64,000 bases of DNA from an uncultured Acidobacteriota bacterium (lineage in GTDB: Bacteria; Acidobacteriota; Thermoanaerobaculia; Gp7-AA8): contig CAWGEI010000005.1 in the NCBI GenBank assembly GCA_963821585.1, positions 6,603 to 70,602 of the forward strand, read 5' to 3'. The position numbers and the translations under genes were made by a program. Positions 5,044 through 57,834 of this stretch are shown one piece after another; positions within the stretch are counted from its first letter, which is position 1; every line of letters begins with the position of its first letter. Under the pieces are notes generated by a model, which made no database searches, had not been told where the DNA came from, and saw only the letters and a program-made list of their open reading frames with translations.

Positions 5044-5213
5044 CTGTCGCCCGCTACGCGGGCTCGTTCCAACGCCCGCTTCGTGTTCCCCCGGCTGAAG
5101 CCGGGGGCTATTTTCTGGCAGCCCGCTACGCGGGCAAGAGGCAATAGACCCCGGCTTCAGCCGGGGGAACGAGCGCGCGACGTTGGATCGAGTCCGCGTA
5201 GCGGGCGGCAGAC
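5044..5213. repeat. Family-2 nested composite palindrome, copy A
   Basis: Layout is CTGTCGCCCGCTACGCGGGCTCG ... CCCCCGGCTGAAGCCGGGGGCTATTTTCT ... GCCCGCTACGCGGGC ... AATAGACCCCGGCTTCAGCCGGGGG ... CGAGTCCGCGTAGCGGGCGGCAGAC. Confidence 0.9.
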
Positions 5214-5294
5214 AACGCGTGTTTGGAGTGCGGATCAGCTACCATCGCGCGATCGTGCCCATCAGCGCAGAATGAAGTCCACCGCCCCCTGATC

Positions 5295-6938
5295 ATGTGG
5301 CCCCTTCGCATCGCCGCTGCGCGGCTTCGTCCCTTCAACGCCTCCACGTTCATCCGCACGGGGATCGTGCTGGTCGTCGTCGCGGCGTTCCTCGTCGGCG
5401 ACTACGCGCTGTTTGCGCGGCTCTTCGGCGCGATCGCGGGCGTCGAGTCGGAGACGCCGCTCTTTGCCCTCGGCCTGCTCCGCAACCTGCTCGGGCTGGT
5501 GTTTCTCGTCGCGACGGTGACGCTGTTGTCCTCCGCGATGGCGGCGGCGATCGCGTCGTACTTCACGGACCTCGATCTCGACATCTACCACGCCGGTCCG
5601 CGGTCGAAGCTGCGCATCGCCCTCTCACGGTGGCTGAAGACGCTGGTGCAGAGCGCGACGGTGGTGTTCCTATTTCTCGTGCCGCTGATCGTCGCCTTCG
5701 CGCGCCAGTACGACAAGCCGTTCGCGTTCTATCCCGCCGTGCTGGTGAACCTCGCGCTGCTGCTGACGATCCCGGTGACGCTGGCCTCGATCGTCATCCT
5801 GATGCTCGTGCGCTGGTTTCCGGTGCGACGGGTCTACCAGATCGTGGCGTCGATCGCCGTACTCGTGCTGACGCTGGTCGTGATCGCGTTCCGCATGAGC
5901 CGGCCGGAGCGCTTCTTCGCCGAGCTCTCGACGATTGACGTGGCCGAGGTGCTGCGGGCGATCGAGCTGCCTTCGATGAGCATCTATCCGAGCACGTCGC
6001 TCGCGGAACTGATGACGCGCAGCGATGCAGCGCCGTTCGCGCCGCGCATCGTGCTGATCGCGCTGATCGCGTTCATGGCATTCGCGGTGCTGGCGCGGGC
6101 GTGGTACTTCCGCGCGTTCGTGCGGGCGCGGGAGAGCATGGCGCCGGCGGCGATCGGGGCGTCGTCCGCGACGCGCATCCTGGACCGGCTCTTCGCGCGC
6201 GCGGACCCGCCGCTGCGGGCGATGATCGGCAAGGAAGTGCGCACGATCGGGCGCGACGTCGCGCAGTGGTCGCAGGTGTTCCTCATGGGCGCGCTGCTGT
6301 TCATCTATCTCTACAACATCCGCATGCTGCCGCTGGGCGGCGACGCGCGCGCGACGCTGGTGGCGTACGCGAACCTCGGCATGTCGGGCTTCGTGATCGC
6401 GGCGATCTGCCTGCGTTTCGCGTATCCGTCGGTGTCGGCGGAGGGGAAGGCGTTCTGGCTGATCCAGAGCGCGCCGATCTCGTACCGCGACTTCCTGCTG
6501 GTGAAGGTCGCGGTCTACGCGGCGCCGCTGACGCTGCTCTCGCTGCTGCTCACCGCGTTCGCGAATTTCATCCTCGGCGCGAACGCGGTGGTGTGGACGT
6601 TCACGCTGGCGGGCGCGCTGCTGCTGGCGGTGACGCTGGTGAGCCTGGGCGTGGGCCTCGGCGCGCTCTCGCCGGACTTCAACGCGGAGAATCCGCTGCA
6701 GGTGGGGCTGTCGCTGGGAGGATTCGGCTACATGGCCATTTCGCTCGCGTACGTCGCGGCGGTGATGGTGCTGATGGCCCGTCCGGTGATGAGCTACTTC
6801 CTGCGCGTGGTGGGCGTGGAGCAGGCCGCGATCTCGGCGACGATCCCGATCGTGATTGCGCTCACGTTGTCCGCGCTGCTATCGGTGATATCTCTGCTGG
6901 CAGCGGAACGCCGCCTCACCCGCTTCAAAAGCGATTAG
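5295..6938 (+). CDS. Polytopic membrane protein (10 or more predicted TM helices; ABC-2/'putative ABC exporter'-like)
   Basis: The ORF is open from 5223, but the upstream part reads through the repeat. The ATG at 5295 (MWPLRIAAARL...) is the more likely start. The sequence is hydrophobic throughout. Confidence 0.75.
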   Translation: MWPLRIAAARLRPFNASTFIRTGIVLVVVAAFLVGDYALFARLFGAIAGVESETPLFALGLLRNLLGLVFLVATVTLLSSAMAAAIASYFTDLDLDIYHAGPRSKLRIALSRWLKTLVQSATVVFLFLVPLIVAFARQYDKPFAFYPAVLVNLALLLTIPVTLASIVILMLVRWFPVRRVYQIVASIAVLVLTLVVIAFRMSRPERFFAELSTIDVAEVLRAIELPSMSIYPSTSLAELMTRSDAAPFAPRIVLIALIAFMAFAVLARAWYFRAFVRARESMAPAAIGASSATRILDRLFARADPPLRAMIGKEVRTIGRDVAQWSQVFLMGALLFIYLYNIRMLPLGGDARATLVAYANLGMSGFVIAAICLRFAYPSVSAEGKAFWLIQSAPISYRDFLLVKVAVYAAPLTLLSLLLTAFANFILGANAVVWTFTLAGALLLAVTLVSLGVGLGALSPDFNAENPLQVGLSLGGFGYMAISLAYVAAVMVLMARPVMSYFLRVVGVEQAAISATIPIVIALTLSALLSVISLLAAERRLTRFKSD

Positions 6939-6976
6939 AATCGAACCGCCTGAAGACAATCCGGCAAGGAGAAGAA

Positions 6977-7408
6977 ATGACCGCTATTCCTCCGCCCACG
7001 GTCCCCCCTGTGACTCCTCCGCCACCGGGAGGCGGGTCGTACACTCCGCCGCCCCCACCGCCACCGGGCGGAGTCAGCCCCAGCTCCGACCGGACGCTGA
7101 TGATCGTGCTCTCATACCTCGGCCTGCTCGCTCTGATTCCGTATCTGACGAAGAAGGAAGACGCCGAGATCCACTGGCACGCGAAGAACGGCGTGGGCCT
7201 GCTAATCCTCGATGTGGTGGTCGGGGTCGCCCTGTTCGTCCTCGGCATGATCATCAATCAGGTAGGCATTCCCTGTGGCTCGTTGGCCGTGAGCTGCATC
7301 GTCTGGATCGGCATCCTCGTCCTGCACGTTTACTGCATCACCCAGGCGGTCGGCGGAAAGCGTCCGCGGATCCCGGTCGTGACCGACTTCGCCGAGAAAT
7401 CGCTCTAA
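6977..7408 (+). CDS. Pro-rich N-terminus plus DUF4870-like 3-TM membrane protein
   Basis: ATG at 6977 is preceded by AAGGAGAAG. Sequence: MTAIPPPTVPPVTPPPPGGGSYTPPPPPPPGG...LMIVLSYLGLLALIPYLTKKEDAEIHWHAKNGVGLLIL. It is embedded in the longer spurious ORF 6101..7408. Confidence 0.8.
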   Translation: MTAIPPPTVPPVTPPPPGGGSYTPPPPPPPGGVSPSSDRTLMIVLSYLGLLALIPYLTKKEDAEIHWHAKNGVGLLILDVVVGVALFVLGMIINQVGIPCGSLAVSCIVWIGILVLHVYCITQAVGGKRPRIPVVTDFAEKSL

Positions 7409-7418
7409 GGTAGATCGG

Positions 7419-7739
7419 ATGTCCGACTCCACGCCACCGTCCCCACCACCCGCCCCCGCCGGTCCCGGCGGGGGTGGTCTCGTCTATCCGGCCAATCCGC
7501 CGAAAGACCCGGTTCTGATTCTCATCCTGAACCTAGTCTTCGGAATCGGGTACATCATGATGGGCCAGAAGACGAAAGGGATCGTCGCCATCGGTGCTTT
7601 CTGGGTGGTGACGTTCGCAACGTGCGGCCCGGGGAGCATCATCGCCGCGTTGTATGCGATCGACGGCTACCTGCAAGCGCAGCAGCTCCAGCAGGGACAC
7701 CCGGTCGGCGAGTGGACGTTCTTCAACGACCATCGGTAG
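7419..7739 (+). CDS. Pro-rich N-terminus plus TM2-like small membrane protein
   Basis: 106 aa: MSDSTPPSPPPAPAGPGGGG...LILNLVFGIGYIMMGQKTKGIVAIGAFW...YAIDGYLQAQ. Confidence 0.75.
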   Translation: MSDSTPPSPPPAPAGPGGGGLVYPANPPKDPVLILILNLVFGIGYIMMGQKTKGIVAIGAFWVVTFATCGPGSIIAALYAIDGYLQAQQLQQGHPVGEWTFFNDHR

Positions 7740-7743
7740 TCTT

Positions 7744-7836
7744 TGGAGTGCGGCGACGACTAGTCGCCGCTTTTCAATCTTTGCACGCTGAGCGCTCGAA
7801 GATAGGAAAGCGGCGACTCGCCGTCGCCGCACTCCA
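7744..7836. repeat. Long hairpin between convergent genes (30-nt arms, about 33-nt spacer)
   Basis: TGGAGTGCGGCGACGACTAGTCGCCGCTTT pairs with AAAGCGGCGACTCGCCGTCGCCGCACTCCA (3 mismatches). Each arm is itself self-complementary (GCGGCGAC/GTCGCCGC). Confidence 0.85.
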
Positions 7837-7838
7837 TA

Positions 7839-8204
7839 TCAGAACGGGTACAGCGGCGTGTTCCGCACGATCCAGTAGCTGGTCAGGACGAAGAACGCCG
7901 CCCACGCGAACCAGGGTTGCATGAGGAAGCGGGGCTGGCGACCTCGGAACAGGCTGGGGAGCGCGCACAGGGTCACGGCCAGCAGCAGGAAGAGCATCGG
8001 ATTGAGGCGGAAGGCCTCTTCGACGCGGCCGTGCAGCAGATGATGGAGCGCGCGCGTGGTGCCGCAGCCGGGGCATTCCAAGCCCGTCATCAGCCGGAAG
8101 GGGCATTGGGGGTAGAAGGCGTACGCCGTCGGCGGGAAGGTGAAGAGCACCCACCCACCGACGGCAGCCACGGCCGCGCTAACCGCGATTCGCCTGAGCT
8201 GCAC
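7839..8204 (-). CDS. DUF2752 family membrane protein
   Basis: 121 aa. CPFRLMTGLECPGCGTTRALHHLLHGRVEEAFRLNP is the DUF2752 signature. The gene overlaps the upstream gene by 26 nt. Confidence 0.85.
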   Translation of the reverse strand: MQLRRIAVSAAVAAVGGWVLFTFPPTAYAFYPQCPFRLMTGLECPGCGTTRALHHLLHGRVEEAFRLNPMLFLLLAVTLCALPSLFRGRQPRFLMQPWFAWAAFFVLTSYWIVRNTPLYPF

Positions 8205-8595
8205 TGATTGCCTGCATCATGTTGGCGCCGAAGACGATTCCCCAGATGATCGTGGCGACCAAGCCAACGCCAACGCCGATGAGCAGGAACATCTTCGCCT
8301 TCTGCGACGCTTCCTGCGCGCCGGCGATGTCGCCCTGCGCGAGCTTGGAATTGACCTGCGCGGAGAAGATGATCGCCACGATGCCGAGCGGGAGGCAGCA
8401 GCAGAGCGTGACCACGATCGACTGCCACAGGTAGTTCGGGATGGTCGCGGCGCCGACCGGCGGCGGCGCACCGAAGTTCGACGGCGGCGGGGGAGGCGTA
8501 TACGACGACGGAGCCCCGGCGCTCAGGGAGCGTCCGCAGTTCACGCAGACCGAGGCGTTATCGAGGTTGGACGTACCGCAATTCGGACAGTTCAA
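8179..8595 (-). CDS. Zinc-ribbon + Pro-rich linker + CD225/dispanin-family membrane protein
   Basis: CPNCGTSNLDNASVCVNCG, then PNYLWQSIVVTLCCCLPLGIVAIIFSAQVNSKLAQGDIAGAQEASQKAK. The likely start is TTG at 8595, 6 nt after AAGGAGG. The ORF track extends it to 8694. Confidence 0.85.
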   Translation of the reverse strand: MNCPNCGTSNLDNASVCVNCGRSLSAGAPSSYTPPPPPSNFGAPPPVGAATIPNYLWQSIVVTLCCCLPLGIVAIIFSAQVNSKLAQGDIAGAQEASQKAKMFLLIGVGVGLVATIIWGIVFGANMMQAISAAQANRG

Positions 8596-8606
8596 ACCAT
8601 TCCTCC

Positions 8607-9529: not shown

Positions 9530-9565
9530 AAGCTCCAGTCGTACCGGGATTGGATGGCGGATTGT

Positions 9566-9648
9566 AACGTAGGGCGTGGCTTCAGCCCGCCTCTCTGGTC
9601 GAAACCCCCGCCCACGAGGGGAGGCGGGCTGAAGCCGCGCCCTACGTT
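9566..9648. repeat. Family-1 inverted-doublet (REPIN-like) element, copy 2
   Basis: AACGTAGGGCGTGGCTTCAGCCCGCC ... GGCGGGCTGAAGCCGCGCCCTACGTT with a 31-nt loop. Confidence 0.9.
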
Positions 9649-9655
9649 TGTGACA

Positions 9656-10204
9656 TCACCACATCATGCCGAGCTGCAGGCGCGCCGCCTCGGACATCAT
9701 GCTGCGATCCCAGACGGGGTCGAACACGACGTCGACTTCGGCGTTCTTCACACCAGGCAGGCTCACGAGCTTGCTCTTCACGTCGCTGGCGAGGACCGGA
9801 CCCATGCCGCAGCCGGGCGCGGTGAGGGTCATCTTGATCTTGACGTTCTTCCCGCCCTCGTCCGACGCCTCCAACTCGCAGAGGTAGACGAGGCCGAGGT
9901 CGACGATGTTCACCGGGATCTCGGGGTCGTAGCAGGTTTTGAGCGCTTCCCAGACCATCTCTTCCAGCTTCTCGGGAGTGAGCTCTTCCGGTTTGACCTC
10001 CGCGGTCTCCAGCGGAGCCTTGCCGATGGCCTCGACTTCAACGCCGGACACCCGGACCATCAGCCCGCGGTCGGTGATCAGCGTGTACGTGCCGCCGAGG
10101 GACTGGGTGATCGTCGCCTGGGCGCCCTTCGGGACGAGGACTTTCTCCCCGCTGGGGATCATGACGGCTTCTGTGTTGCGGCTGAAGGTGATTTCTTCTC
10201 TCAT
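9656..10204 (-). CDS. sufT: SUF Fe-S assembly protein SufT (DUF59/MIP18 domain)
   Basis: 182 aa. CYDPEIPVNIVDLGLVY...LTAPGCGMG is a DUF59 motif. It is the last gene of the suf operon. Confidence 0.85.
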   Translation of the reverse strand: MREEITFSRNTEAVMIPSGEKVLVPKGAQATITQSLGGTYTLITDRGLMVRVSGVEVEAIGKAPLETAEVKPEELTPEKLEEMVWEALKTCYDPEIPVNIVDLGLVYLCELEASDEGGKNVKIKMTLTAPGCGMGPVLASDVKSKLVSLPGVKNAEVDVVFDPVWDRSMMSEAARLQLGMMW

Positions 10205-10220
10205 CGCAGTTCGCTCCCGC

Positions 10221-10670
10221 TCATTCGGTACTCACCTTCTCGTCCCGGCCCTCGAGAGCACTTCGAAGGGTGTGCCAGGCCAGCGTCGCGCACTTGACGC
10301 GGGCAGGAAACTCGCTCACGCCCGAGAACGCCGCCAGGCGGCCGAGGTCCGAGGCGCTGAGACCGCTCGCATCGCCGGTGACCAGACGATGGAACGTATC
10401 GAAGAGGCGCTCGGCTTCCTCTCTGGACTTTCCTTTGATGGTCGAGCTCATCACAGACGCCGACGCCTTCGAAATGGCGCATCCGCTCCCGGTGAAGCTC
10501 ACCTCGGCGATCTTCTCGCCGTCGGTCTTGAGGAAGATCGTGTAGTGATCGCCGCAAAGCGGGTTGTAGCCATCGACACGCGAGGTGGCGTCCGCCATCT
10601 CGTGGAAGTTGCGGGGGTTCTTGTTGTGGTCGAGGATGACCTGCTGGTACAGCTCGCGTAAGTCGGACAT
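10221..10670 (-). CDS. sufU: SUF NifU/IscU-like Fe-S scaffold SufU
   Basis: MSDLRELYQQVILDHNKNPRNFHEM...NPLCGDHYTIFLK...GSGCAISKASAS. Start is at ATG 10670; the ORF track extends to 10715. Confidence 0.88.
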   Translation of the reverse strand: MSDLRELYQQVILDHNKNPRNFHEMADATSRVDGYNPLCGDHYTIFLKTDGEKIAEVSFTGSGCAISKASASVMSSTIKGKSREEAERLFDTFHRLVTGDASGLSASDLGRLAAFSGVSEFPARVKCATLAWHTLRSALEGRDEKVSTE

Positions 10671-10677
10671 TTTAAAT

Positions 10678-15878: not shown

Positions 15879-15910
15879 TTACAACCGGATGGATTGATGG
15901 GAGATTCCGC

Positions 15911-16098
15911 CTGCCGCCCGCTACGCAGGCTGGACATCAACGCTCCCTCGCGTCCCCCGGCTGAAGCCGGGGTCTATTCTCTCAAGCCGCCTACGGCGGC
16001 TGGAACCCGAGCCTGCGTAGCAGGCACCAGAAAATAGACCCCGGCTTCAGCCGGGGAGACGGCGGCGCGATGAGATCAGCCCGCGTAGCGGGCGGCAG
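15911..16098. repeat. Family-2 nested composite palindrome, copy B
   Basis: Same module order as copy A. The central hairpins here are GCCGCCTACGGCGGC and GCCTGCGTAGCAGGC. Confidence 0.88.
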
Positions 16099-16140
16099 AA
16101 AAGTGGCACCCTGCTTGCGATTCGTCAGACCAGGACGGCC

Positions 16141-16671
16141 ATGAAAAACAGACTGATGTTCCCGTTGGTATTTGTCGCGGCGTGGGGGGTGGCGTGCAGT
16201 GGCGACGGAGCCCGGCGCGGCGCACAGCAGAACAACTACGAAACCGTTCAGGAAGGCTCGGCCGCGGGCGTGACGTCGACGATTCACGGGCCGGGCGAGG
16301 TGCTTCCGCCGGTCACGGGGACGAACGCGGATACGACCTCAGCCTTCACGATCGACCCGAACACGGCCGCCACGACAGTAGCGGTCGCACCACCCATGCC
16401 GGAGCCAATGCCGGTCACGGCGACAACGCCGGCTCGTTATCCGATTCCTCAGACTTCCGCCGTGCCGGTCCGGCAACCGCCTCCGGAGCGCGCACCCGAA
16501 CCCGCGCCTGCACCGCCTACGGAGACCGCGCCGCCTACCGAGACGGCGCCTCCCACGGAGACCGCACCCCCGACAAAGACGGACACGGTCGCGCAGCCAG
16601 GCGAGCAGGAGCAGGCAGAGCCGCAAGCGGAAGAGCCGCCTCCGACGACGACGGACACAAGGGGACAATAG
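16141..16671 (+). CDS. Secreted (possibly lipidated) Pro/Thr/Ala-rich protein
   Basis: 176 aa. Signal peptide MKNRLMFPLVFVAAWGVAC, then a low-complexity tail with APPTET repeats. The stop TAG falls in the first unit of the downstream hairpin. Confidence 0.7.
   Translation: MKNRLMFPLVFVAAWGVACSGDGARRGAQQNNYETVQEGSAAGVTSTIHGPGEVLPPVTGTNADTTSAFTIDPNTAATTVAVAPPMPEPMPVTATTPARYPIPQTSAVPVRQPPPERAPEPAPAPPTETAPPTETAPPTETAPPTKTDTVAQPGEQEQAEPQAEEPPPTTTDTRGQ
16510..16581 (+). repeat. In-frame 18-bp tandem repeat x4 (APPTET/APPTKT)
   Basis: gcaccgcctacggagacc / gcgccgcctaccgagacg / gcgcctcccacggagacc / gcacccccgacaaagacg. Confidence 0.85.
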
Positions 16672-19706: not shown

Positions 19707-20947
19707 GCCGCCCAGCCGTCGTCCTCCTGCTCTGCTGCACGCTCCTCGCGTGCCGCGAGGACGCGCCTCCTCCCGCCGCCGCCAAAGCACCCGCGCCGCC
19801 CGCGCGCATCGCGGCGACGCCGGACAATGACTCCGACAACTCGTTGAATCTCATGTACGGCGCCGCGGTCGTCTCCCGCACCGGCGAGCTGCACCTCGAA
19901 AACTCTGCCGTCCACACGATCGACGGGTTCGCCGAGACCATCTGGATGTCCGCGCCCGGCGTGCCGGAAGAGATGCTGGTCTATTCGATGCTCGCGCCCA
20001 CGCGCCTGCAGCGCGTCGGCATCAGCACCCACAGCGGCGACGACGCGGTGGACAGCGTCGCCTTCGCCGCGTCGATGGACGGGAAGACGTGGACGGATCT
20101 CGGCACGCTGAAAGCCACGCGCACGGACGAGCGGCAGTTCCTGGACGTGAAGCCGACCGTCGCGCACTACCTCCGCGTCCGCACGATCGATCCCGCGGGG
20201 CGCTACTACGTCCGCCTGCGCGGTGTCCACGCGATCGGCGAGGAGGTAGCGGCGCCGAAGACACCGTCGTTCAGCGGCTGCTGGATGATCAACGGGGAGC
20301 GCGCGCACCTGGAGCAGCACGGTGCGCGCATCACGGGCGTGATCGAGAGCGATCCGCCGGCGTACATCGACGGCGGCACGGACAACCGCGCGGGGATGAT
20401 CATGTGGATGCGCGGTCTGACGTGGGGCTACGCGGTGATCACGCGCTCGCCTAACGGAGAGCATCTCTCGGGGTTGAGCTTCTTCGAGGAAGTAGACAAG
20501 AACATCGGCGAGGGGTGGTTCGGGGAGAGATGTAACGTAGGGCGTGGCTTCAGCCCGCCCTCCCCGGGGGCGGGCGGGCTGAAGCCACGCCCTACGTTGT
20601 TCTTCGCTCGCGCGAAGCGGTATTCGCTGTACGGGCTGGTCTTCGATGCGAACGACCGGCTCGTCGAGGAAGTGAGCGAACCGACGCTCGATGTCCTGGC
20701 CTCGCTGATCGCCTCTGCGTCGCAGCCGATGCGGCTCGTCGCGCGCGAGCTGCGCTACACCCCCGAGCAGAACCGGCAGCACGCGGCGGCGCGGCTGCAG
20801 GCGATCCGCGCCGCACTCGAACGGCGCGGGGTGAACCTCTCCCGGATCGAGTTCGTCAACGCGGGCGGCGACACCGGCGGAATCGTCCTCCGCTCTTCCC
20901 TTCAGCGAGCGCTCCTCAGCCGCGTCGACCTCGTTTCTGGGACATAA
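19703..20947 (+). CDS. Lipoprotein with a discoidin (F5/8 type C)-like domain and a degenerate OmpA-like C-terminal domain; carries an in-frame family-1 repeat
   Basis: GTG at 19703 overlaps the glyS stop. Lipobox LLAC is present. ...[38 protein letters not shown] is discoidin-like. The frame stays open through the repeat ([23 protein letters not shown]). Confidence 0.75.
20534..20598. repeat. Family-1 inverted-doublet (REPIN-like) element, copy 3, located inside the CDS
   Basis: AACGTAGGGCGTGGCTTCAGCCCGCC ctccccgggggcg GGCGGGCTGAAGCCACGCCCTACGTT. Confidence 0.9.
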
Positions 20948-24884: not shown

Positions 24885-24945
24885 AACGTAGGGCGTGGCT
24901 TCAGCCCACCTTTTTGGACGGCACGCTGTAGCCACGCCCTACATT
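24885..24945. repeat. Family-1 element, copy 4 (degenerate right arm)
   Basis: AACGTAGGGCGTGGCTTCAGCCCACC ... GCTGTAGCCACGCCCTACATT. The inner part of the right arm is missing. Confidence 0.7.
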
Positions 24946-24952
24946 CTTTCGC

Positions 24953-29678: not shown

Positions 29679-29701
29679 CTGGCGCGAGTATAAGGGGATC
29701 T

Positions 29702-29890
29702 CTGTCGCCCGCTACGCGGGCTCGTTCCCAGCGACCGCGCTATTCCCCCGGCTGAAGCCGGGGTCTATTTTCTGTAGCCCGCTACGCGGGCAGAATTTGC
29801 CGCCGTAGGCGGCGACAGAAAATAGCCTCCGGCTTCAGCCGGAGGACTGCGACGGGTTGGGGTTGCGAGCCCGCGTATGCGGGCGGCAGA
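29702..29890. repeat. Family-2 nested composite palindrome, copy C
   Basis: CTGTCGCCCGCTACGCGGGCTCGTTCC ... CCCCCGGCTGAAGCCGGGGTCTATTTTCT ... GCCCGCTACGCGGGC / GCCGCCGTAGGCGGC ... AATAGCCTCCGGCTTCAGCCGGAGG ... CGAGCCCGCGTATGCGGGCGGCAGAG. Confidence 0.9.
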
Positions 29891-29900
29891 GATTTGCCCC

Positions 29901-32683: not shown

Positions 32684-33523
32684 TTGAAGGAACCAACCAA
32701 AATCCGCATCGGCCCGGCGGGCTGGAGCTACAAAGATTGGGAAGGCGTCGTCTACCCGTCGCACGGTTCGAAGTTCGACGCACTCGGCTATCTCGCGCAG
32801 TTTTTCGACACCATCGAGATCAACTCGCCGTTCTATCGCATCCCTCCGCCGACACACTCGAAGAGCTGGGTGAAGCGCGTCGCCGTGAACGACAATTTCA
32901 AGTTCACGACGAAGATCTATCGCGGCTTCACGCACGAGACCGAGGCGCTGTCGAAGGATGACGTGCAGGCGTTCCGCAACTACCTCGACCCTCTCATGGA
33001 AGCCGACCGCCTCGGCGCGATCCTCATCCAGTTCCCGTGGAGCTTCAAGAACACGCCCGAGTCCCGCGCGAAGCTCGTCAAGCTCTTCGGCGCCTTCAAG
33101 GACTACCCGCAGTCCCTCGAAGTACGGCACTCGACGTTCCAGGTGCCGGAGCTCTACGAGCTCCTGGACGAGCACGACGTCGCCTGGGTGAACGTCGACC
33201 AGCCGCTGTTCAGCGACTCCGTGAAGCCGGCGGACACGGTGACCGGTCCCGTCGCGTACGCGCGCTTCCACGGACGCAACTACGAGAAGTGGTTCGCGCA
33301 CGACGAATCGTGGGAGCGCTACAACTATCTCTACTCCGAGCGGGAGCTCGCGCCGTGGGTCGAGCGCATCGAGCGGATGGCGAAGAAGCGCGACACGTAC
33401 GTGATCACCAACAACCACTTCCGCGGCCAGGCCATCCTGAACGCGGGCGACCTCAAGGAGTCGCTGGGCCAGGACGCAACGCTGCCTCCGCAGTTGAAGG
33501 AGGCCTACCCCGACCGGACGTAG
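32684..33523 (+). CDS. DUF72 (UPF0759/YecE-like) protein
   Basis: 279 aa. IRIGPAGWSYKDWEGVVYP...FDTIEINSPFYR is the DUF72 signature. The start is TTG. The stop TAG lies inside the family-1 repeat. Confidence 0.88.
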   Translation: MKEPTKIRIGPAGWSYKDWEGVVYPSHGSKFDALGYLAQFFDTIEINSPFYRIPPPTHSKSWVKRVAVNDNFKFTTKIYRGFTHETEALSKDDVQAFRNYLDPLMEADRLGAILIQFPWSFKNTPESRAKLVKLFGAFKDYPQSLEVRHSTFQVPELYELLDEHDVAWVNVDQPLFSDSVKPADTVTGPVAYARFHGRNYEKWFAHDESWERYNYLYSERELAPWVERIERMAKKRDTYVITNNHFRGQAILNAGDLKESLGQDATLPPQLKEAYPDRT

Positions 33524-33580
33524 GGCGTGGCTTTAGCCCGCCTCCCCCGGGGGAGGCGGGCTAAAGCCACGCCCTACGTT
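33518..33580. repeat. Family-1 inverted-doublet (REPIN-like) element, copy 5, with a compensatory arm substitution
   Basis: ACGTAGGGCGTGGCTTTAGCCCGCC tcccccggggga GGCGGGCTAAAGCCACGCCCTACGTT. Confidence 0.9.
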
Positions 33581-33600
33581 GCGAGGTACGATTCGCGCGA

Positions 33601-40530: not shown

Positions 40531-40618
40531 AGAGCGCGGAGCGCAGAGGGCAGAGCGCAGAAGGCCACCGCCCCACCACCGAGTTCTTCTGCCCTCTGCG
40601 CTCTGCCCTCTGCGCTCT
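40531..40618. repeat. Hairpin with arms built from 7-nt AGAGCGC/AGAGGGC sub-repeats; fills the divergent intergenic region
   Basis: AGAGCGCGGAGCGCAGAGGGCAGAGCGCAGAAGG ... TTCTTCTGCCCTCTGCGCTCTGCCCTCTGCGCTCT. Confidence 0.88.
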
Positions 40619-41926: not shown

Positions 41927-42676
41927 ATGGACATCCGCTCCATCACCGCCCCGAACCCCGGCCCGTTCACCCTCGACGGCACGCGCACCTACCTCCTCGG
42001 CGAGACGGCGGTCCTCGACCCCGGTCCCGCGATCGGCTCGCACATCGATGCGATTCACGCCGCGATGCCGCGTCTCGAGACCATCCTCATCACCCACCGC
42101 CACGGCGATCACGCGCCCGCCGCGGTGCCCCTGAAACAGCGCACCGGCGCGCGGATCATCGCGCCGCGCAACGTCCTCGATAGCGGATTGGACAAGGTCG
42201 ACCAGCGCGTCGAAGGCGGAGAAGTCCTGTCCATCGGCGGCGTCGAGGTCGAAGTGATCGCCACCCCCGGCCACACGAACGAGCACGTGTGCTATCTGAC
42301 GTCCGAGGGCGACCTCTTCACCGGCGACACCATCCTCGGCGCCGGCACCACCGCCATCTTCCCTCCCGACGGCCACATGGGCGACTACCTCCGCTCCCTG
42401 CAGATCCTCCGCGAGCGCAACCCGAAACGGATCCACCCCGCCCACGGTCCCACCCGCGACGACGCCGTCGCGCTCATCGACGAGTACATCACCCACCGTC
42501 TGGCCCGCGAGCGCCAGATCCTCGCCGCAATCGCCGCGGGCGCGCAGACGCTGCAGGACCTGCGCAAGCGCGTCTATCCGGTGCTCAACCCTCAGCTCCA
42601 CGGCGCCGCGGAGATCCAGCTGACCGCGCACCTGATCAAGCTGCGCGAAGAGGGCCGCACCACCCTGTCATTCTGA
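41927..42676 (+). CDS. MBL-fold metallo-hydrolase
   Basis: 249 aa: ILITHRHGDHAPAA...TPGHTNEHVC. The stop TGA lies inside the family-3 repeat. Confidence 0.88.
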   Translation: MDIRSITAPNPGPFTLDGTRTYLLGETAVLDPGPAIGSHIDAIHAAMPRLETILITHRHGDHAPAAVPLKQRTGARIIAPRNVLDSGLDKVDQRVEGGEVLSIGGVEVEVIATPGHTNEHVCYLTSEGDLFTGDTILGAGTTAIFPPDGHMGDYLRSLQILRERNPKRIHPAHGPTRDDAVALIDEYITHRLARERQILAAIAAGAQTLQDLRKRVYPVLNPQLHGAAEIQLTAHLIKLREEGRTTLSF

Positions 42677-42766
42677 GCCGCGTAGACGGCGAAGAATCCC
42701 CCGCCGAAGCATACGACGCGCTCAACGCACGGGATCCTTCGCCGTCTACGCGGCTCAGGATGACAG
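42665..42766. repeat. Family-3 hairpin element (GTCATCCTGAGC...GCGTAGAC...GAAGGATCC type), copy 1
   Basis: CTGTCATTCTGAGCCGCGTAGACGGCGAAGAATCC ... GGATCCTTCGCCGTCTACGCGGCTCAGGATGACAG. Confidence 0.9.
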
Positions 42767-42767
42767 G

Positions 42768-43223
42768 TCAGCGCGGGATTACCGTCCTGATGAAGCTCTT
42801 GTTCACGAAGTACGTGTCGTCCTCGGCGTCGATGCGCACGAACGACTCCGTCTGATCGTTCAGCACGTCCGAGATGCGCGAGGACTCGCGGGGGCGGTCG
42901 CCGATGGGGATCATTCCTTCGATGCGCGTGCCGTCCGCGAGCTCGAGGATGGTCAGCTTCTCGATCATCGTCGAGTCGAGGTCCACGATGTCCGGGAGCT
43001 TCTCGTAGCGTACCCAGAGGACCTGGTCGCGATTGAGCATCTTCGGCACGCCGGCGCAGACCATAGGGAAGAAGCGCCGCCTCCCGTTGAGATAGTCGGC
43101 GACGGACTCCGGGCCGTCGCGCCGCTCCGCGTACGGCGCCAGATAGAGAAAGTGCTCCTCGGGCTCGGCGCGTGCGAGAGCGACGATCACCGCGACCTCG
43201 ATCATCGGGACCTGGTAGGCCAT
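42768..43223 (-). CDS. Hypothetical protein
   Basis: 151 aa with non-repetitive, protein-like composition. No family recognised. Confidence 0.6.
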   Translation of the reverse strand: MAYQVPMIEVAVIVALARAEPEEHFLYLAPYAERRDGPESVADYLNGRRRFFPMVCAGVPKMLNRDQVLWVRYEKLPDIVDLDSTMIEKLTILELADGTRIEGMIPIGDRPRESSRISDVLNDQTESFVRIDAEDDTYFVNKSFIRTVIPR

Positions 43224-46291: not shown

Positions 46292-47540
<1,249 letters not shown>

Positions 47541-47542
<2 letters not shown>

Positions 47543-47712
47543 GCTGGAATCAGCAAAATGATGCTGGAGCCAGCTCCACGATGCTGTGGCCAGCTCAAAT
47601 GTGCTGGAAACAGCAGGAAAATGCTGGCGCCAGCAAAATAATGCTGCGGCCAACAAAATAATGCTGCGGCCAGCTCCAGAAATGCCGGACCAGCACGAAA
47701 ATGCTGGAATTA
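47541..47712. repeat. Tandem array of about 9 x 20-bp units, each with a GCTGGNNCCAGC dyad
   Basis: Units start at 47541, 47561, 47581, 47601, 47621, 47641, 47661, 47682 and 47701. The consensus is about ATGCTGGNGCCAGCNAAAAT. Confidence 0.88.
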
Positions 47713-47770
47713 ACTCGTTCGACGATTTTTCCAGCTCGCCAGAGCTCCGCGCAGCATTTATGGAGTGCCG

Positions 47771-47857
47771 GTGTCATCCTGAGTCGCGTAGACGCGGAGG
47801 ACCTTCCCCCCTGCCACGTGGAAGGTCCTTCGCTGTCTACGCAGCTCAGGATGACAC
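47771..47857. repeat. Family-3 hairpin element, copy 2
   Basis: GTGTCATCCTGAGTCGCGTAGACGCGGAGGACCTTCC ... GGAAGGTCCTTCGCTGTCTACGCAGCTCAGGATGACAC. Confidence 0.9.
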
Positions 47858-47912
47858 CTTGGATGACACCTGGGCACACGCCTCTGAAACCCCGCGTTGT
47901 GGCAGCCGTAGG

Positions 47913-48068
47913 CCGTACCGGCGAGCCGCCGGTGGACCGGCCGGCCAGCGGCCGGCGCTCCACATGTGCCCTCACCCCGCTCGTCGAGAAGGCGAACGAC
48001 GCACGAGCAGACGCAGGAAGGCGCGCCGGCTGCCAGCCGGCCGGTCCACCGGCGGCTCGCCGGTGCGG
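47913..48068. repeat. Long GC-rich inverted repeat (about 46-nt arms, about 64-nt spacer)
   Basis: CCGTACCGGCGAGCCGCCGGTGGACCGGCCGGCCAGCGGCCGGCGC ... GCGCCGGCTGCCAGCCGGCCGGTCCACCGGCGGCTCGCCGGTGCGG. Confidence 0.85.
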
Positions 48069-48090
48069 GGCCTGTGGTGAATGCAAGACC

Positions 48091-48978
48091 TCACGCGCTG
48101 GCGGCGCGGAATTCGAGGAACCAGGGCTCGCGGCGGCCGAATTTGGTCGCGAGGGCTACGCCGACGCCGAAGATGCTGGACAGGGACCAGAGGATGGTTC
48201 CGACGACGGGGATGAAGCGCAACGAACCGAGAAGCAACACGCCGATCACGACCATGGCCAGGTCGCCGCGGAGCCACTTCCGCTGCTCGAGCTGACCGCG
48301 CGAGCGCGCGCCGGCGATCAGGGTGCCCACCGCGTGGAAGACGGCGATCATGCCGTAGATCTTGGTCAGCAGAGCGAACACGGCCAGCGCGGCGAGCAGC
48401 GGGATGCCGACGACGTACGGCACGAGGTAGCTGAACGCGATCGCGGTGAGGACGAAGCTGGTCAGCGCGACGAGGCCGAGGACGAAGCAGTGCAGCGCGC
48501 TGGTGCGCACTTCGACGGACGACAGGCGGATCTCACGGCCGCTCATGAGCGTCACCACGATCGCCGCGATCAGCCACACCAGCACCAGCGAGGCGATGAT
48601 GGCATTCTTCGTCAGCGCGCCCGCGGCCCCTTCCAGCGACGCCAGCGGGTAGATCCGGCCACCCACGCGCCCTTCCGCACCCATCAGCGTCGCGCCCGCA
48701 TGGATCAGGTTTCCCTGCACGCGTCCGTTCCCCGCGAACGTCACCTTCCCGCCGATGACCAGCAGATCGCCAGCGATCACTTCCCGCAGCAGGAGCGTCC
48801 CGCCGTAGACCTGCACCGTGCCGAGGACCGGCTCGTCGATGGTCGCGTTCTCGTCGACGAAGTGCGTGTCCGAGGTCGTCGTCCGCGACTGCCCCTTCGC
48901 CCCGGTCGGCAGAACGACCGCGAACAGCGCCACCAGCGCCGCAACGACGGTCAGCGGAACGACGAGCCGTCTAAACAT
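48091..48978 (-). CDS. Membrane protein with an N-terminal bactofilin-like (polymer-forming beta-helix) repeat region and 5-6 TM helices
   Basis: 295 aa: GTVQVYGGTLLLREVIAGDLLVIGGKVTFAGNGRVQGNLIHAGATLMGAEGRVGGRIY, then a hydrophobic C-terminal half. It is the third gene of the ECF sigma operon. Confidence 0.65.
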   Translation of the reverse strand: MFRRLVVPLTVVAALVALFAVVLPTGAKGQSRTTTSDTHFVDENATIDEPVLGTVQVYGGTLLLREVIAGDLLVIGGKVTFAGNGRVQGNLIHAGATLMGAEGRVGGRIYPLASLEGAAGALTKNAIIASLVLVWLIAAIVVTLMSGREIRLSSVEVRTSALHCFVLGLVALTSFVLTAIAFSYLVPYVVGIPLLAALAVFALLTKIYGMIAVFHAVGTLIAGARSRGQLEQRKWLRGDLAMVVIGVLLLGSLRFIPVVGTILWSLSSIFGVGVALATKFGRREPWFLEFRAASA

Positions 48979-51910: not shown

Positions 51911-51943
51911 GATTGAGGATGAAGGATTGAGGATTGAGGATTA
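51911..51943. repeat. 7-nt tandem repeat GATTGAG/GATGAAG x about 5
   Basis: gattgag gatgaag gattgag gattgag gatta. A weak complementary segment, CCTCAGATTCATCTCC, lies at about 52124-52139. Confidence 0.75.
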
Positions 51944-51981
51944 GAACCCGTAGCCCAAGACGGTGGCGCTCGGAGGGAAGT

Positions 51982-52107: not shown

Positions 52108-52169
52108 ACGGGGGCCGAGAGACCTCAGATTCATCTCCTGCCCCCCGCGCCCTGCCCCCCGCCCCCTGA

Positions 52170-54026: not shown

Positions 54027-54039
54027 TCGGGTGCTGAGT

Positions 54040-55869
54040 CTACTGCAAGGGCGTGGCCGCCGGCTCGGACCAGGAGATTGCTTCGAGGCTCAACCCGAGC
54101 TCGCGACCGTCATCTTTCGGCCGGATGGGCTGGTCGGTCGCGAGGAGCAGCTGGTTCGCGCCTTCGCGATGGCTCGGCAGGATGTACCGGAGATCCAGCT
54201 TGCCGTTCGGTGGCGCGGTCCGGCGATCGATCACGGTCCCGTTCCACGTCAAGGTGATCACCGGCGGCCTCGGCGTCGCATCCACGGGCGCATGCAGTCT
54301 CAGGCGCAGCTCTCCCTGCCCGTAAAGCGCGGGGGAAAGGAGGATCTCGCCCTCGCGCTGCATCCAGCGCCAGTGGTTCCGGCCGTCGGTCTCGAGCAGG
54401 TGCCAGCCGCGGGACCAGCGAATGATGCGGCGCATCGGGACGACACCGATCTCGAAGAAGCGCGGCCGTGTGATCTCGAAGAGCTGCTCCCGCTTGCGCG
54501 TGAACATGCGGATGCCGGGATGCTGCCGCTCGCCCTCGAAGAGGTAGTAATTCCCGGCCACCAGATCCTCGGCCGGCAACTCTTCGTCATGGCCAACGAT
54601 GCGGTAGTCATAGTCGCCGATGACATACGCCGCGTGGTAGGCGAGATTCACCTGCACGTAGACGCGGGGCCCGGTTTTGGGGACGTTCGTCCGGATCCAT
54701 TGGAATGCAGCGACGGCCGGGGCCGGCTCGGTGCGCGCGAAGCGCAGCGCCGGCCATGTCCATTTGGCAAGCGACCAGGTGACGAACCCCGACAGGACCA
54801 GGAAAAGCGGCAGGCGCGCGCGCGACGGCACGAGCTGCGCGACGGCCTCCGCACCCGCGACGGCGAGGAATGCGTGCAGCGGCAGATAGGCGATCGCGTA
54901 GCGCGCCAGCGCCGACATGTCGAGCATCAGCCAGGTGAGGACCGCCATCGGCAGGAACATGACCAGGAGCACGGCGATGCTCCACCGTCTCCGCACGAGC
55001 GCGTCGAGGAGCGCGACGGCAGCGAGAATCACCACCGCGAACCGCGCTCGCCCGCCTCCCTGCGGATAGAGAAACACGCGCGGCGCCAGTTCGCGCAGCG
55101 GCGTGCGGTACGGATTGCGGAAGGAGTCGGTCTCGCGGAGGTGCTTCTGGATGTAGCGCACTTCCTCGAGGTAGGCGGCAGGAAAGCCGGTGGAGTAGTA
55201 CGCCGCGCCGAGATAAGCGAGGAAGACGACCGCCGCGGCGGCGAGCCACGAGAGAACGAAAGTCTTCATCCGGCGCAACGCGAAGGCGCCGAGGAGCGCG
55301 GGGGGCGCGGCGACGAGGAGGAGTTGCGGGCGGATGCCACACGCCAGGGCGGTGAGGAGCGCGCCGGCCAGGTAGGCACTCGAGCTGCGTCCGCCGCGCA
55401 GCAGCAGAGCCGCCGCGAACAGGATCAGCGCCAGGGCGGGGACGTCGCTCAAGCCGGTACCGCCGTGGTACCAGACGGACGGCAGAAACGCGGTCATCGC
55501 CGCCACGCTGAACGCGAACGGCGTCCGGAAACGCAGCTCGCGGGCCAGGAGGAATGCCGCGGGGAAGACCAGCATCGACGCCAGCGTGGCCACGGCTTGC
55601 AGCGCGTGAAAATCGGTGTCGGTGAAGAGCCGCGCGACCTTCGCCGCGGCGATGAAGAGCGGATAGCCGGGCGGATGGGGGTGGTGCGGCTTGACGTCGT
55701 ATTCGCTCACGCCGAACGCGAACAGGGTCTCGTCCCAGTCGTGAAGCGTCATCGACAGCGCGGGAAAGCGGGTGAGCGCAATCGCGACTGCAAGAATGTT
55801 GAAGAGGATTTTCTGGCCGCGGGTCAAGGAGATGGGAGACTCACGAAGGGCAGCGAGATACGCGAGCAT
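54040..55869 (-). CDS. GT-C-fold membrane glycosyltransferase (DUF2723/PMT-like)
   Basis: 609 aa: DWDETLFAFGVSEYDVKPHHPHPPGYPLFIAAAK, then many TM helices and a soluble C-terminal domain. Confidence 0.75.
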   Translation of the reverse strand: MLAYLAALRESPISLTRGQKILFNILAVAIALTRFPALSMTLHDWDETLFAFGVSEYDVKPHHPHPPGYPLFIAAAKVARLFTDTDFHALQAVATLASMLVFPAAFLLARELRFRTPFAFSVAAMTAFLPSVWYHGGTGLSDVPALALILFAAALLLRGGRSSSAYLAGALLTALACGIRPQLLLVAAPPALLGAFALRRMKTFVLSWLAAAAVVFLAYLGAAYYSTGFPAAYLEEVRYIQKHLRETDSFRNPYRTPLRELAPRVFLYPQGGGRARFAVVILAAVALLDALVRRRWSIAVLLVMFLPMAVLTWLMLDMSALARYAIAYLPLHAFLAVAGAEAVAQLVPSRARLPLFLVLSGFVTWSLAKWTWPALRFARTEPAPAVAAFQWIRTNVPKTGPRVYVQVNLAYHAAYVIGDYDYRIVGHDEELPAEDLVAGNYYLFEGERQHPGIRMFTRKREQLFEITRPRFFEIGVVPMRRIIRWSRGWHLLETDGRNHWRWMQREGEILLSPALYGQGELRLRLHAPVDATPRPPVITLTWNGTVIDRRTAPPNGKLDLRYILPSHREGANQLLLATDQPIRPKDDGRELGLSLEAISWSEPAATPLQ

Positions 55870-55895
55870 GGGACGGCCCGCATTCTGTCATCATT

Positions 55896-57653
55896 ATGTC
55901 CATCACAAACAAGCAGCATCCGGGAGGTCTCGTGTCACGAATTCGCGTGTGGACGCTGTTCGCAGTCGTCGTTCTCTGCTGTACCGCGTCCGCGCAGGAC
56001 ACGCGCATCGGGGAATCGATCGAGGTCTCGATCGTCAACGTCGAGGTTCACGTCACGGACAAGCAGGGGAACCGCGTGACCGGGCTGCGGGCGGAGGACT
56101 TCGAGATCCGGGAGAACGGCAAGGCCCAGCCGATCACGAACTTCTCGGAGTACGTTTCGGCGGGCTCCGCCGGGACGGCGGCGGTCGAAGCGGCGCCCGG
56201 GAGTGCGGCTGTGAGCTCGTCCGTGAAGGCCGAGGCTCCGCCGCGGCTGCGGCGCTCGATCGTGCTGTTCATCGAGCCACTCACCCTCGCCAACTTCCGG
56301 GCGAAGGAGTTTTTCGACTCCCTCCGCACCCTGCTGCGGCGCACGGTCGAGAAAGGCGATCAGGTCTCGATCGTCACCTTCGTGCGCGCGACGCGCATCC
56401 GCCAACCGTTCACGGACGACATGGCCAGCATCGACACCACGCTCGCCGCGCTGGAGAAAGAAATGACCGGCGTCGAGGGCAATACCTACGACGAGAGCAG
56501 GTTCGTGCTCGCCGAGGCGGCGTCGTTCGAGAAGGAGTACGAGGAAGCGCTTACCGAGCTCGGATTCCCCCCGCCGGGCAACAGTACACCCGTGTCCATG
56601 TCCGAGCTGGCTGCGGCACGGCGGGAGCTCTTCCTGATCCGCCAGAAGACCGCGGCGCTGGAGTCGCTCATCCAGAGCATCTCCGGCGCGGACGCACGCA
56701 AGATCCTGATCATGGCCCCGCGCCGCTTCGGGTTGTACGCGGGGGCCCATTACTTCGGCGGAGCCGTTCCGACCCAATACAGGCAGGAACTGGACACGAC
56801 GCAGTATCGGCAGTCGCTCATCGCCAAGGCGAACGCCAACGGCGTGACGATCTACACGCTCCATCCGGAAGGGCTGCTGAACACGAGCAGCAACGATCCG
56901 TCGATCTCGGGCCAGGACCGCATGGTGAGCACGCTCGAGCAGGATCTCGCCCGTGCGAGACTCGGCAACGGGATCCTGATGAATGAGTCCTCGGCGCTGG
57001 ATGAGGTCGCGGTCGCGACCGGCGGTCTCAGCGCATGGGGGAGCACGGGCATCGCGAAGCTGCTCCCCCGGGTCGGCGACGACCTCGAGACCTACTACTC
57101 GCTCGCGTACAGGGCCACGGCGACGGGGAAGGACGCCGCGCGCAAGATCGTCGTCACGACGAAGAATCCGGCCCACGTCGTGCGGGCGCGGAAGCAGTTC
57201 GTCGAAAAGTCCGAGACGACGCAGATCAAGGACCGCGTGCGCTCGAACCTGTTCCAGAAGGTCGAGGGCTCGAGCGCGCAGATTCCGTTCGACGTGGCGG
57301 TGGGGACGGTCAAGAAGACCGGCAGGAACCGCTGGACGGTGCCGCTGAAGATCCGCATCCCGATCGGCAGCCTGACGACCTTGCCGCGCGGCCCCGAGGA
57401 GTCGGGAACGTTCTCCGTCTTCTTCGCCACCGGCGGCGTCCTCGGCGTCATGAGCGAAGTCGAGCAGCGCACACAGTCGTTCACCATCCCCCGCGGCGAC
57501 GTCGCGCGCGCGAAGACGTCGCACTTCACGTACGACCTCGAGCTCTCGATCGACCAGCTCGTGAAGTCCCTGTCGATCGCGGTGATGGACGACGTCGGCA
57601 AGGAGTTCGGCATCAAGCGGTACACGCTGCCGAAGGAATCTGCCGCCCGCTGA
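55896..57653 (+). CDS. VWFA-related (acidobacterial-type) domain protein, secreted
   Basis: 585 aa: IEVSIVNVEVHVTDKQGNRVTGLRAEDFEIRENGKAQPITNF, then a VWA-like region. The last codons and the TGA stop lie in family-2 copy D. Confidence 0.85.
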   Translation: MSITNKQHPGGLVSRIRVWTLFAVVVLCCTASAQDTRIGESIEVSIVNVEVHVTDKQGNRVTGLRAEDFEIRENGKAQPITNFSEYVSAGSAGTAAVEAAPGSAAVSSSVKAEAPPRLRRSIVLFIEPLTLANFRAKEFFDSLRTLLRRTVEKGDQVSIVTFVRATRIRQPFTDDMASIDTTLAALEKEMTGVEGNTYDESRFVLAEAASFEKEYEEALTELGFPPPGNSTPVSMSELAAARRELFLIRQKTAALESLIQSISGADARKILIMAPRRFGLYAGAHYFGGAVPTQYRQELDTTQYRQSLIAKANANGVTIYTLHPEGLLNTSSNDPSISGQDRMVSTLEQDLARARLGNGILMNESSALDEVAVATGGLSAWGSTGIAKLLPRVGDDLETYYSLAYRATATGKDAARKIVVTTKNPAHVVRARKQFVEKSETTQIKDRVRSNLFQKVEGSSAQIPFDVAVGTVKKTGRNRWTVPLKIRIPIGSLTTLPRGPEESGTFSVFFATGGVLGVMSEVEQRTQSFTIPRGDVARAKTSHFTYDLELSIDQLVKSLSIAVMDDVGKEFGIKRYTLPKESAAR

Positions 57654-57834
57654 CGCGGGCTCGTTCTCGCGCCGCCCGCACGGTCCCCCCGGCTGAAGCC
57701 GGGGTCTATTGTCTGGCAGCCCGCTACGCGGGCAAGAGAACAGGCCCGCGTAGCGGGCCCAAGGGAATAGCTCCCGGCTTCAGCCGGGAGACGACGAGGG
57801 GCAACCCAGGAACGAGCCCGCGTAGCGGGCGACA
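57640..57834. repeat. Family-2 nested composite palindrome, copy D
   Basis: CTGCCGCCCGCTGACGCGGGCTCGTTC ... CCCCCGGCTGAAGCCGGGGTCTATTGTCT ... GCCCGCTACGCGGGC / GCCCGCGTAGCGGGC ... AATAGCTCCCGGCTTCAGCCGGGAG ... GAACGAGCCCGCGTAGCGGGCGACAG. Confidence 0.9.

Follow-up and report, generated by a model that had tools for sequence, protein, structure and literature searches.

A three-hairpin, REPIN-like repeat family of Acidobacteriota with a probable IS200-family Y1 transposase as partner

Four long composite palindromes are spread over a 64,000-nucleotide stretch of contig CAWGEI010000005.1 (positions 6,603 to 70,602, forward strand; assembly GCA_963821585.1) from an uncultured acidobacterium of the Thermoanaerobaculia. 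The whole stretch is called the window below, and the four palindromes belong to a repeat termed Family 2. What are these elements, and what keeps their hairpins paired while the stem sequences change? An earlier note, made from the sequence alone, had described each as one element built from two hairpin modules, X and Y, had argued for recognition at the level of structure and had pointed to a Y1 transposase as a conceivable partner. Here we examined the elements in the window and in related genomes. Quite likely, the four elements are inverted pairs of a smaller, three-hairpin unit and form a non-autonomous DNA repeat family resembling repetitive extragenic palindromes (REPs) and their hairpin-forming doublets (REPINs), with a dedicated IS200-family Y1 (HUH) transposase. 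The host range comprises Thermoanaerobaculia and other Acidobacteriota.

The repeat unit

The unit is about 100 nt long. It begins with the tag CTGTC, followed by hairpin X1 (6 bp, loop TAC), a spacer of 21-25 nt with variable sequence, hairpin Y (8 bp, loop TGAA), the tag CTATT, a short linker and hairpin X2 (6 bp, loop TAC). It was defined with 51 copies at first and with 97 later. A covariance model of this unit, R1, was run on the 64-kb window and returned exactly eight full-length units (77-99 bits, E 1e-18 to 1e-24) and no further element of this type. The eight units constitute four tail-to-tail dimers with the X2 ends inside. The Y hairpin pattern, with up to 3 mismatches allowed, occurred 15 times in the window vs 0.15 occurrences expected by chance.

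One genome per species was scanned for CCGGCTGAAGCCGGNNNCTATT, which yielded at least 69 loci (L numbers below denote related loci). The matches listed were mostly from Thermoanaerobaculia and other Acidobacteriota metagenome-assembled genomes (MAGs). In related loci R1 detected about 85 more units, arranged as singletons, tail-to-tail dimers or head-to-head dimers (junction GGCAGATCTGTC); the prevailing dimer type varied from genome to genome. The dimer, previously taken as the basic element, thus had to give way to the monomer as the real building block. The presence of units was lineage-specific. No unit was present in 80 loci with orthologs of gcvP2, the gene next to the fourth window copy (405 kb in total; about 35 at 79% or more amino-acid identity). 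Viral contigs scanned for Y plus CTATT gave no match, and a literature search for the Y sequence retrieved nothing relevant.

Tandem arrays of Y-like hairpins were seen in Bacteroidota MAGs (L009 4469-4590, L019 974-1367, L031 5001-5539 and L047 261-351). They have GGCTGAAGCC or GGGCTAAAGCCC cores followed by CTATT; therefore, the hairpin-plus-CTATT module is found well outside Acidobacteriota.

A Y1 transposase gene between inverted units

The gene was searched for by tblastn with an acidobacterial tyrosine transposase from Di Nocera et al. (2013). This led to L026, and intact homologues were then traced in their contigs. In L026 two head-to-head units (3703-3818, minus strand, and 4250-4351, plus strand) enclose 430 nt with a frameshifted and internally deleted tnpA. 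The pseudogene scored 77.5 bits with PF01797, a model run on this copy only, and 61.6 bits with NF033573 (transpos_IS200). In four genomes an intact gene for a 150-aa IS200-family Y1/HUH protein lies between units, the X1 heads pointing inward as they do around the decayed copy in the fifth. In L076 tnpA (3001-3453) is bracketed by units at 2858-2960 (-) and 3536-3637 (+), in L082 tnpA (3001-3453) by units at 2847-2952 (-) and 3449-3552 (+). In L085 (tnpA 3001-3453) a tail-to-tail dimer is located on either side, and L167 (tnpA 2001-2453) likewise has a dimer on either side. The intact genes scored 66-83 bits with NF033573 (cut-off 55). The L076 protein, P0121, carries the HUH motif DHLHLL and the tyrosine motif ARYIERQKIHH. 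Judged by these model matches, the enzyme is of the IS200 clade, not of the canonical clade of RAYTs, the tyrosine transposases that are associated with REPs. A cognate Y1 transposase, which the earlier note had brought into play, was thus found in relatives with units on both sides of its gene.

L076, L085 and L171 share the same locus, AMP-binding / tnpA / Trp_halogenase, with flanks 80-84% identical; the transposases of L076 and L085 (P0121 and P0135) are 79% identical. L171 has decayed flanking units and a protein with an altered C-terminus. Because the locus is the same in three genomes, the enzyme appears to behave like a RAYT, i.e. it is usually single-copy and vertically inherited, with one locus looked up per transposase.

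A hairpin in the tnpA leader, GCATGCG-TCGGAA-CGCATGC (L076 2987-3006, also in L026 and L082), holds the ATG start codon and is like the translational-control hairpin of IS200. At L168 an abiF RNA (1910-1946; RF03085, 55 bits) next to an Abi_2 gene, a known motif-gene pair, is located directly upstream of a Pyrinomonadaceae homologue of the transposase.

No match to RAYT or HUH regexes was obtained in the window or in the first 69 loci. A canonical RAYT in L002 (7068-7790; NF047646, 76 bits) was considered as partner and rejected; it is flanked by a different repeat, Family 3 (TGGAGTGCGGCAGCG..), as are its homologues (at least 120).

Structure is kept while sequence is free

Covariation was examined in the 97 units. 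Standard pairs filled 96.9% of the stem cells compared with 87.8% after shuffling of partners, and none of 500 shuffles reached the observed value. When the 3' partner was slid by 1-3 columns pairing fell to 34-48%. Changes on both sides were present in 13 of 20 stem pairs (120 cells). Because the search pattern prescribed the inner Y stem together with its loop, only the outer Y pairs are informative in this respect. The stem variants therefore are not random decay, and the proposal of recognition at the level of structure was supported by the census.

Loops and single-stranded tags behaved differently from the stems in that they were largely constant. The TAC loop was present in 76 of 97 X1 and 75 of 97 X2 hairpins, and CTGTC 5' of X1 and CTATT 3' of Y were constant tags. 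The units of L082 have no CTATT at all; those adjoining the transposase carry a compensated Y variant, GCC/GGC. In units from Bryobacterales X1 and X2 are both altered to GCCC-CTYCA-GGGC and Y is unchanged. This joint change suggests that one reader recognises both X hairpins.

In 9 of the 97 units the X1 loop reads TGAC or TAAC, each of which makes a stop codon.

The four copies in the window

The four palindromes can be aligned end to end, all at the positions first reported for them and all intergenic. The alignment confirmed the module order X-spacer-Y-X(X')-Y'-spacer-X', in full CTGYC-X-spacer-Y-CTATTnnCT-X-(X')-AGnnAATAG-Y'-spacer-X'-GRCAG. The consensus hairpins are GCCCGC-TAC-GCGGGC for X and CCCCGGC-TGAA-GCCGGGG for Y. 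A single, shared X occupies the centre of copy 1 and two are found in copies 2-4. As described before, the contexts all differ: tandem, divergent, tandem on the minus strand and convergent.

Copy 1 (5044-5213), a tail-to-tail dimer, lies between tandem genes, ddl (stop 5031) and an ABC_tran_2 gene (start 5223). Its X hairpins are at 5049-5063, 5121-5135 and 5192-5206, its Y hairpins at 5089-5106 (+) and 5149-5166 (-). Unit 1a (5036-5141, +, R1 91.9 bits) is laid out as CTGTC-X1-spacer-Y-CTATTTTCT-X2 and has the central X in common with unit 1b (5115-5219, -, 77.4 bits).

Copy 2 (15911-16098), again tail-to-tail, separates a divergent pair, an Rrf2 gene (start 15827, -) and a 176-aa open reading frame (ORF; start 16141). 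X hairpins are at 15916-15930, 15986-16000 (GCCGCC/GGCGGC), 16011-16025 (GCCTGC/GCAGGC) and 16079-16093, Y hairpins at 15955-15972 (+) and 16039-16056 (-). The units are 2a (15903-16006, +, R1 83.1 bits) and 2b (16005-16106, -, 93.5 bits). A sigma-54-type promoter consensus, TGGCAC-N5-TTGC (16104-16118), adjoins this copy on the right, 23 nt upstream of the ATG at 16141.

Copy 3 (29702-29890) is a tail-to-tail heterodimer between tandem minus-strand genes, the start of a 95-aa ORF (29678, -) and the stop of a gene for a Cys/Met pyridoxal-phosphate enzyme (29901, -). The X hairpins are at 29707-29721, 29777-29791, 29799-29813 (GCCGCC/GGCGGC) and 29869-29884 (loop GTAT), the Y hairpins at 29746-29763 (+) and 29827-29844 (-, CTCCGG/CCGGAG). 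Unit 3a (29694-29797, +) scored 99.4 bits with R1 and unit 3b (29793-29897, -) 88.3 bits. As a single strand copy 3 is predicted to fold into one long hairpin, with -91 kcal/mol as DNA (z -14) and -158 kcal/mol as RNA (z -16).

Copy 4 (57640-57835), a tail-to-tail dimer, is positioned between convergent genes, a 585-aa ORF ending within the first X loop (stop 57651-57653) and gcvP2 (stop 57842). X hairpins are found at 57645-57660 (loop TGAC), 57719-57733, 57744-57758 and 57816-57830, Y hairpins at 57687-57704 (+) and 57772-57789 (-, TCCCGG/CCGGGA). Units 4a (57632-57739, +) and 4b (57738-57843, -) had R1 scores of 80.0 and 90.9 bits. The 585-aa ORF (55896-57653) has a signal-peptide-like N-terminus and no Pfam match. 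Its last four codons and the TGA stop come from the first X hairpin of copy 4, in which the loop is TGAC for TAC.

Compensated X stems are real: next to GCCCGC/GCGGGC, the variants GCCGCC/GGCGGC and GCCTGC/GCAGGC are fully paired. Two statements about these copies had to be qualified. The loop TAC/GTA, held to be invariant, is broken by TGAC in copy 4 and GTAT in copy 3. The stems, said to keep their pairing, are mostly compensated, with the exceptions of a C.A mismatch at 15916-15930 and a T.G pair at 5192-5206.

A possible mode of spreading and its weak points

IS608 TnpA and the TnpA-REP of E. coli provide a template for how such a family may spread. By analogy, the transposase would bind hairpins extruded from single-stranded DNA, e.g. 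the lagging-strand template. Loops and tags would be recognised by their sequence, stems by their shape; the enzyme would cut and rejoin DNA adjoining the foot of a hairpin, and units or dimers would be copied or moved into intergenic DNA without target duplications. Thus, we infer mobility of the repeats from these related enzymes. Target duplications were absent around the four window copies. Dimers could form a hairpin of about 90 bp or a cruciform. Polar effects of dimers on neighbouring genes are possible because Y with CTATTTTCT resembles an intrinsic terminator in both directions.

Several points weigh against a transposase-driven repeat family. First, a flank-to-flank search of all loci returned no clean pair of filled and empty orthologous sites. 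Second, the canonical 5' GTAG tag is not present; Y' is preceded by ATAG and X1 by CTGTC. Third, the RAYT model NF047646 gave P0121, P0135 and P0155 at most 26 bits (cut-off 80). Fourth, the 64-kb window is without a transposase of this clade. Fifth, spacers of the window copies are only about 64% identical whereas the hairpin modules are 85-93% identical, a gap which needs either selection on each copy or an ascertainment bias. Finally, covariation by itself cannot tell DNA hairpins from RNA hairpins. The window copies, with diverged spacers and no transposase in the 64 kb, may be old and currently immobile.

Concerning the orthologous sites, different palindromic families were found to occupy the same ones. 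The window between 36.8 and 60 kb is syntenic with GCA_035627015.1 (locus L072; about 75-90% DNA identity). There, the copy-4 site contains a Family 3 palindrome, without a Family 2 element and without the 585-aa gene. Conversely, a Lactamase_B/OTCase intergenic site with a Family 2 dimer in L028 carries another palindrome, of a fourth family, in L072 and in the window.

Alternative explanations

Could the dimers be bidirectional intrinsic terminators or insulators of the host, or stabilisers of mRNA 3'-ends, selected by the host and only incidentally linked to a transposase? Terminator-like calls were obtained for Y plus CTATTTTCT, in copy 3 for both strands and in copy 1 for one; three of the window's four copies adjoin the 3' end of a gene, and the hairpins are conserved despite drift of the spacers. 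By crude gene calls, none of 60 unit clusters was intragenic, and convergent and tandem contexts prevailed among the 44 clusters with a called gene on either side (23 tandem, 15 convergent, 6 divergent). Yet copy 2 and five other clusters are located between divergent genes. Conservation is limited to CTATT and does not include the T-run; the sequence in other genomes is CTATTTCCT, CTATTGATCT or CTATTACCT, and L082 lacks even CTATT. X hairpins and the CTGTC tag play no part in termination, and the element is missing from the gcvP2 3' end in about 35 close relatives. We consider host-selected terminators an unlikely origin of the family; a terminator role as a side effect is plausible.

A second alternative was raised by Rfam. 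The Acido-Lenti-1 motif (RF01687), listed there as Gene; sRNA, was published as a likely small RNA (sRNA) of unknown function from Acidobacteria and Lentisphaerae, covariation being the ground for this rating (Weinberg et al., 2010, PMC2864571). Y, linker and X2 of unit 3b (29798-29845) were the sole match in the window above the RF01687 gathering score (38.9 vs 37 bits); unit 1a was second with 28.5 bits. In 18 related loci, which contain about 36 units, no unit passed the gathering score. Because of this and because the Rfam seed is dominated by Lentisphaera sequences, a second model, R2, was built only from the 22 published non-Lentisphaera seeds. R2 matched all eight window units (27.5-46.3 bits, E 8e-13 to 6e-7), the next-best match being at 16.8 bits. 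Individually, the scores were 40.5 bits for 1a (5088-5134), 28.3 for 1b (5120-5167), 29.7 for 2a, 35.2 for 2b, 28.7 for 3a, 46.3 for 3b, 27.5 for 4a and 33.6 for 4b. In related loci R2 had 59 matches, units flanking the transposase among them.

Are the units then genes for, or parts of, a structured noncoding RNA, with stems kept for an RNA fold? The matches to Acido-Lenti-1 and the strong stem covariation favour this. Against it, units occur in both orientations, as palindromic dimers, in a divergent promoter region and as inverted copies around a transposase gene. The two copies scanned for promoter-like sites, 1 and 3, have none beside them. Even the published seeds are arrayed at distances of 74-200 nt, which is repeat-like. 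In about 1,870 stem cells, read in the Rfam orientation, we counted only 7 G.T wobble pairs (G.U in RNA) vs 23 A.C mismatches; for an RNA read in this orientation, such counts are weak counter-evidence. Taken together, an RNA gene appears quite improbable. The same counts hint that the relevant strand may be the complementary one, which has ATAG-Y' and, in the X loops, GTAG; as the events are not independent, we take this as no more than a lead. GTAG, to which the earlier note had drawn attention, is indeed present, inside the X loop, but it is not the canonical 5' tag of a REP.

Miniature inverted-repeat transposable elements (MITEs) of a classical DDE transposon, moved via terminal inverted repeats (CTGYCGCCCGC...) with target-site duplication, are hardly credible: dimer ends are inverted over roughly 26 bp and the size would fit, but direct target duplications flank none of the four copies, monomers with only one such end are common and the only gene found between inverted units encodes a Y1/HUH transposase.

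For the repeat family with its own Y1 transposase, the Rfam matches have a consequence. Part of a Y1-transposase repeat is a candidate identity of Acido-Lenti-1. A bolder proposal, which we put forward tentatively and regard as rather less than even, would be that Acido-Lenti-1 is not an RNA gene but the module by which a domesticated Y1 transposase of the IS200 clade recognises DNA. It would then belong to a previously unrecognised REPIN/RAYT-like replicator across Acidobacteriota, and possibly other phyla with the motif, with an unusually complex and modular substrate of three hairpins, a free spacer of fixed length and dimers co-opted as bidirectional terminators where genes end. RF01687, so far an orphan Rfam family, gains a testable identity, in which it would be a transposase substrate instead of an sRNA. 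For annotation, the units would account for many calls of intergenic "structured RNA" or terminators in genomes of Acidobacteriota.

Comparison with known systems

The closest parallels are REPs, bacterial interspersed mosaic elements (BIMEs) and REPINs with RAYTs (TnpA-REP) of E. coli and Pseudomonas (Nunvar 2010; Bertels and Rainey, 2011, PMC3116915; Ton-Hoang 2012). In both cases short extragenic palindromes with compensated stems occur in many copies, either single or paired in inverted dimers of the head-to-head or tail-to-tail type. Similarly, inverted repeats flank a single-copy HUH/Y1 gene, the locus of which is fixed across related genomes. Yet a REP is one hairpin of 20-35 nt whereas the unit here has about 100 nt, three different hairpins and a variable spacer of fixed length. 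GT[AG]G is not at the hairpin foot, the tags being CTGTC and CTATT. The enzyme passes the IS200 model NF033573 and fails the RAYT model, and the host phylum is Acidobacteriota.

TIRtrons with their TIRYTs are tyrosine transposases with long, sometimes double-palindromic inverted repeats; among them is a clearly delimited group from Acidobacteria (Di Nocera et al., 2013, PMC3733652). By description, these repeats are alike in that a Y1 gene is found between inverted composite repeats, which are dispersed as dimers or clusters, and the host phylum is the same. The acidobacterial TIRYTs, e.g. aba_1552 of K. versatilis, are of the RAYT type (Y..NPV), unlike the IS200-type enzyme here (HVVFSTKDR...YIERQKIHH). 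The CGTC/TGTC-tagged REPs of the same study were ruled out as relatives. They require a stem of 8-9 bp starting with A/T pairs, a loop of 4-5 nt and a CCA tail; X1 is TGTC-tagged but has a 6-bp stem entirely of G/C pairs, a 3-nt loop and a TCG/TGG tail.

In Acido-Lenti-1 a hairpin of 8 bp (loop of 4 nt) is followed by GCUAUU, some 7 nt and a hairpin of 5-6 bp (loop of 3 nt), as in the Y-to-X2 part of the unit. The unit adds the 5' hairpin X1 and the spacer, and Rfam gives an sRNA without a link to a transposase.

IS200/IS605 elements and their transposase-less derivatives (palindrome-associated transposable elements, PATEs) share the transposase family, the absence of target duplications and the start-codon leader hairpin; their end hairpins are recognised as single-stranded DNA. 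In contrast, canonical IS200/IS605 elements have asymmetric ends and are, as a whole, multi-copy and horizontally mobile. The gene described here is single-copy, stays at a conserved locus and has inverted copies of one unit as ends, and amplification is confined to these end units. A RAYT-like 'IS200 Group 3' was described by Bertels et al. (2017, PMC5581495), with single copy number, vertical inheritance and an abundant repeat as flanks.

Overall, Family 2 is best explained as REP/REPIN-like repeats, a known kind in a new form, with their own IS200-clade Y1 transposase. REPIN/RAYT-type systems would thus reach beyond Proteobacteria, in the form of a single-copy IS200-clade enzyme with hairpin repeats in a poorly studied soil phylum. 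With its compensated stems, fixed loops and tags and co-changing X1 and X2, the repeat is a natural recognition experiment that could show how HUH enzymes read composite single-stranded DNA hairpins.

Other palindromic families in the window and its relatives

Family 1 has the classic REPIN layout. Its GTAG-tagged hairpins, ACGTAGGGCGTGGCTTCAGCCCGCC, are arranged as inverted doublets at 1736-1800, 9567-9649, 20534-20598, 24886-24946 and 33518-33581 of the window, and copies are also found in L017, L041 and L064. The hairpin core GGCTGAAGCC is common to Family 1 and Y.

Family 3 (TGGAGTGCGGCnnCG..CGCCGC) is represented in the window at 7744-7836, and in relatives at L002 6937-7005 and 7826-7897, L070 10530-10620 and L072 9895-9950 and 18205-18300. 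With the canonical RAYT gene that it flanks in relatives (NF047646, about 77 bits) it makes up a separate REP-RAYT pair of the same lineage. In L072 the RAYT gene is located between Iso_dh and a gene for 299 aa (region 9885-10586). The matching window position, 47521-48110, has no gene and holds AATGCTGG/CCAGC tandem repeats (47540-47700) and a palindrome of Family 4 (47771-47857). A GC-rich palindrome of 156 bp at 47913-48068 is also present in L051 and L086.

Family 4 (TGTCATCCTGAGCCGCGTAGACGGCGAAGGA...) has a further window copy at 42655-42776 and one in L072 at 5715-5800. A palindrome of 81 bp that looks perfect (GGAGCGCAGAGGGCAGAGCGCAGAAGGC...) occupies 40538-40618; compared with the syntenic L072 (3755-3760) it is an insertion.

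Finally, the 100-200 nt that follow the gcvP2 stop were inspected in L086-L116. L105 has no palindromic element there, and almost every related genome has a different one; this 3' end appears to be a hotspot for the insertion of hairpin repeats.

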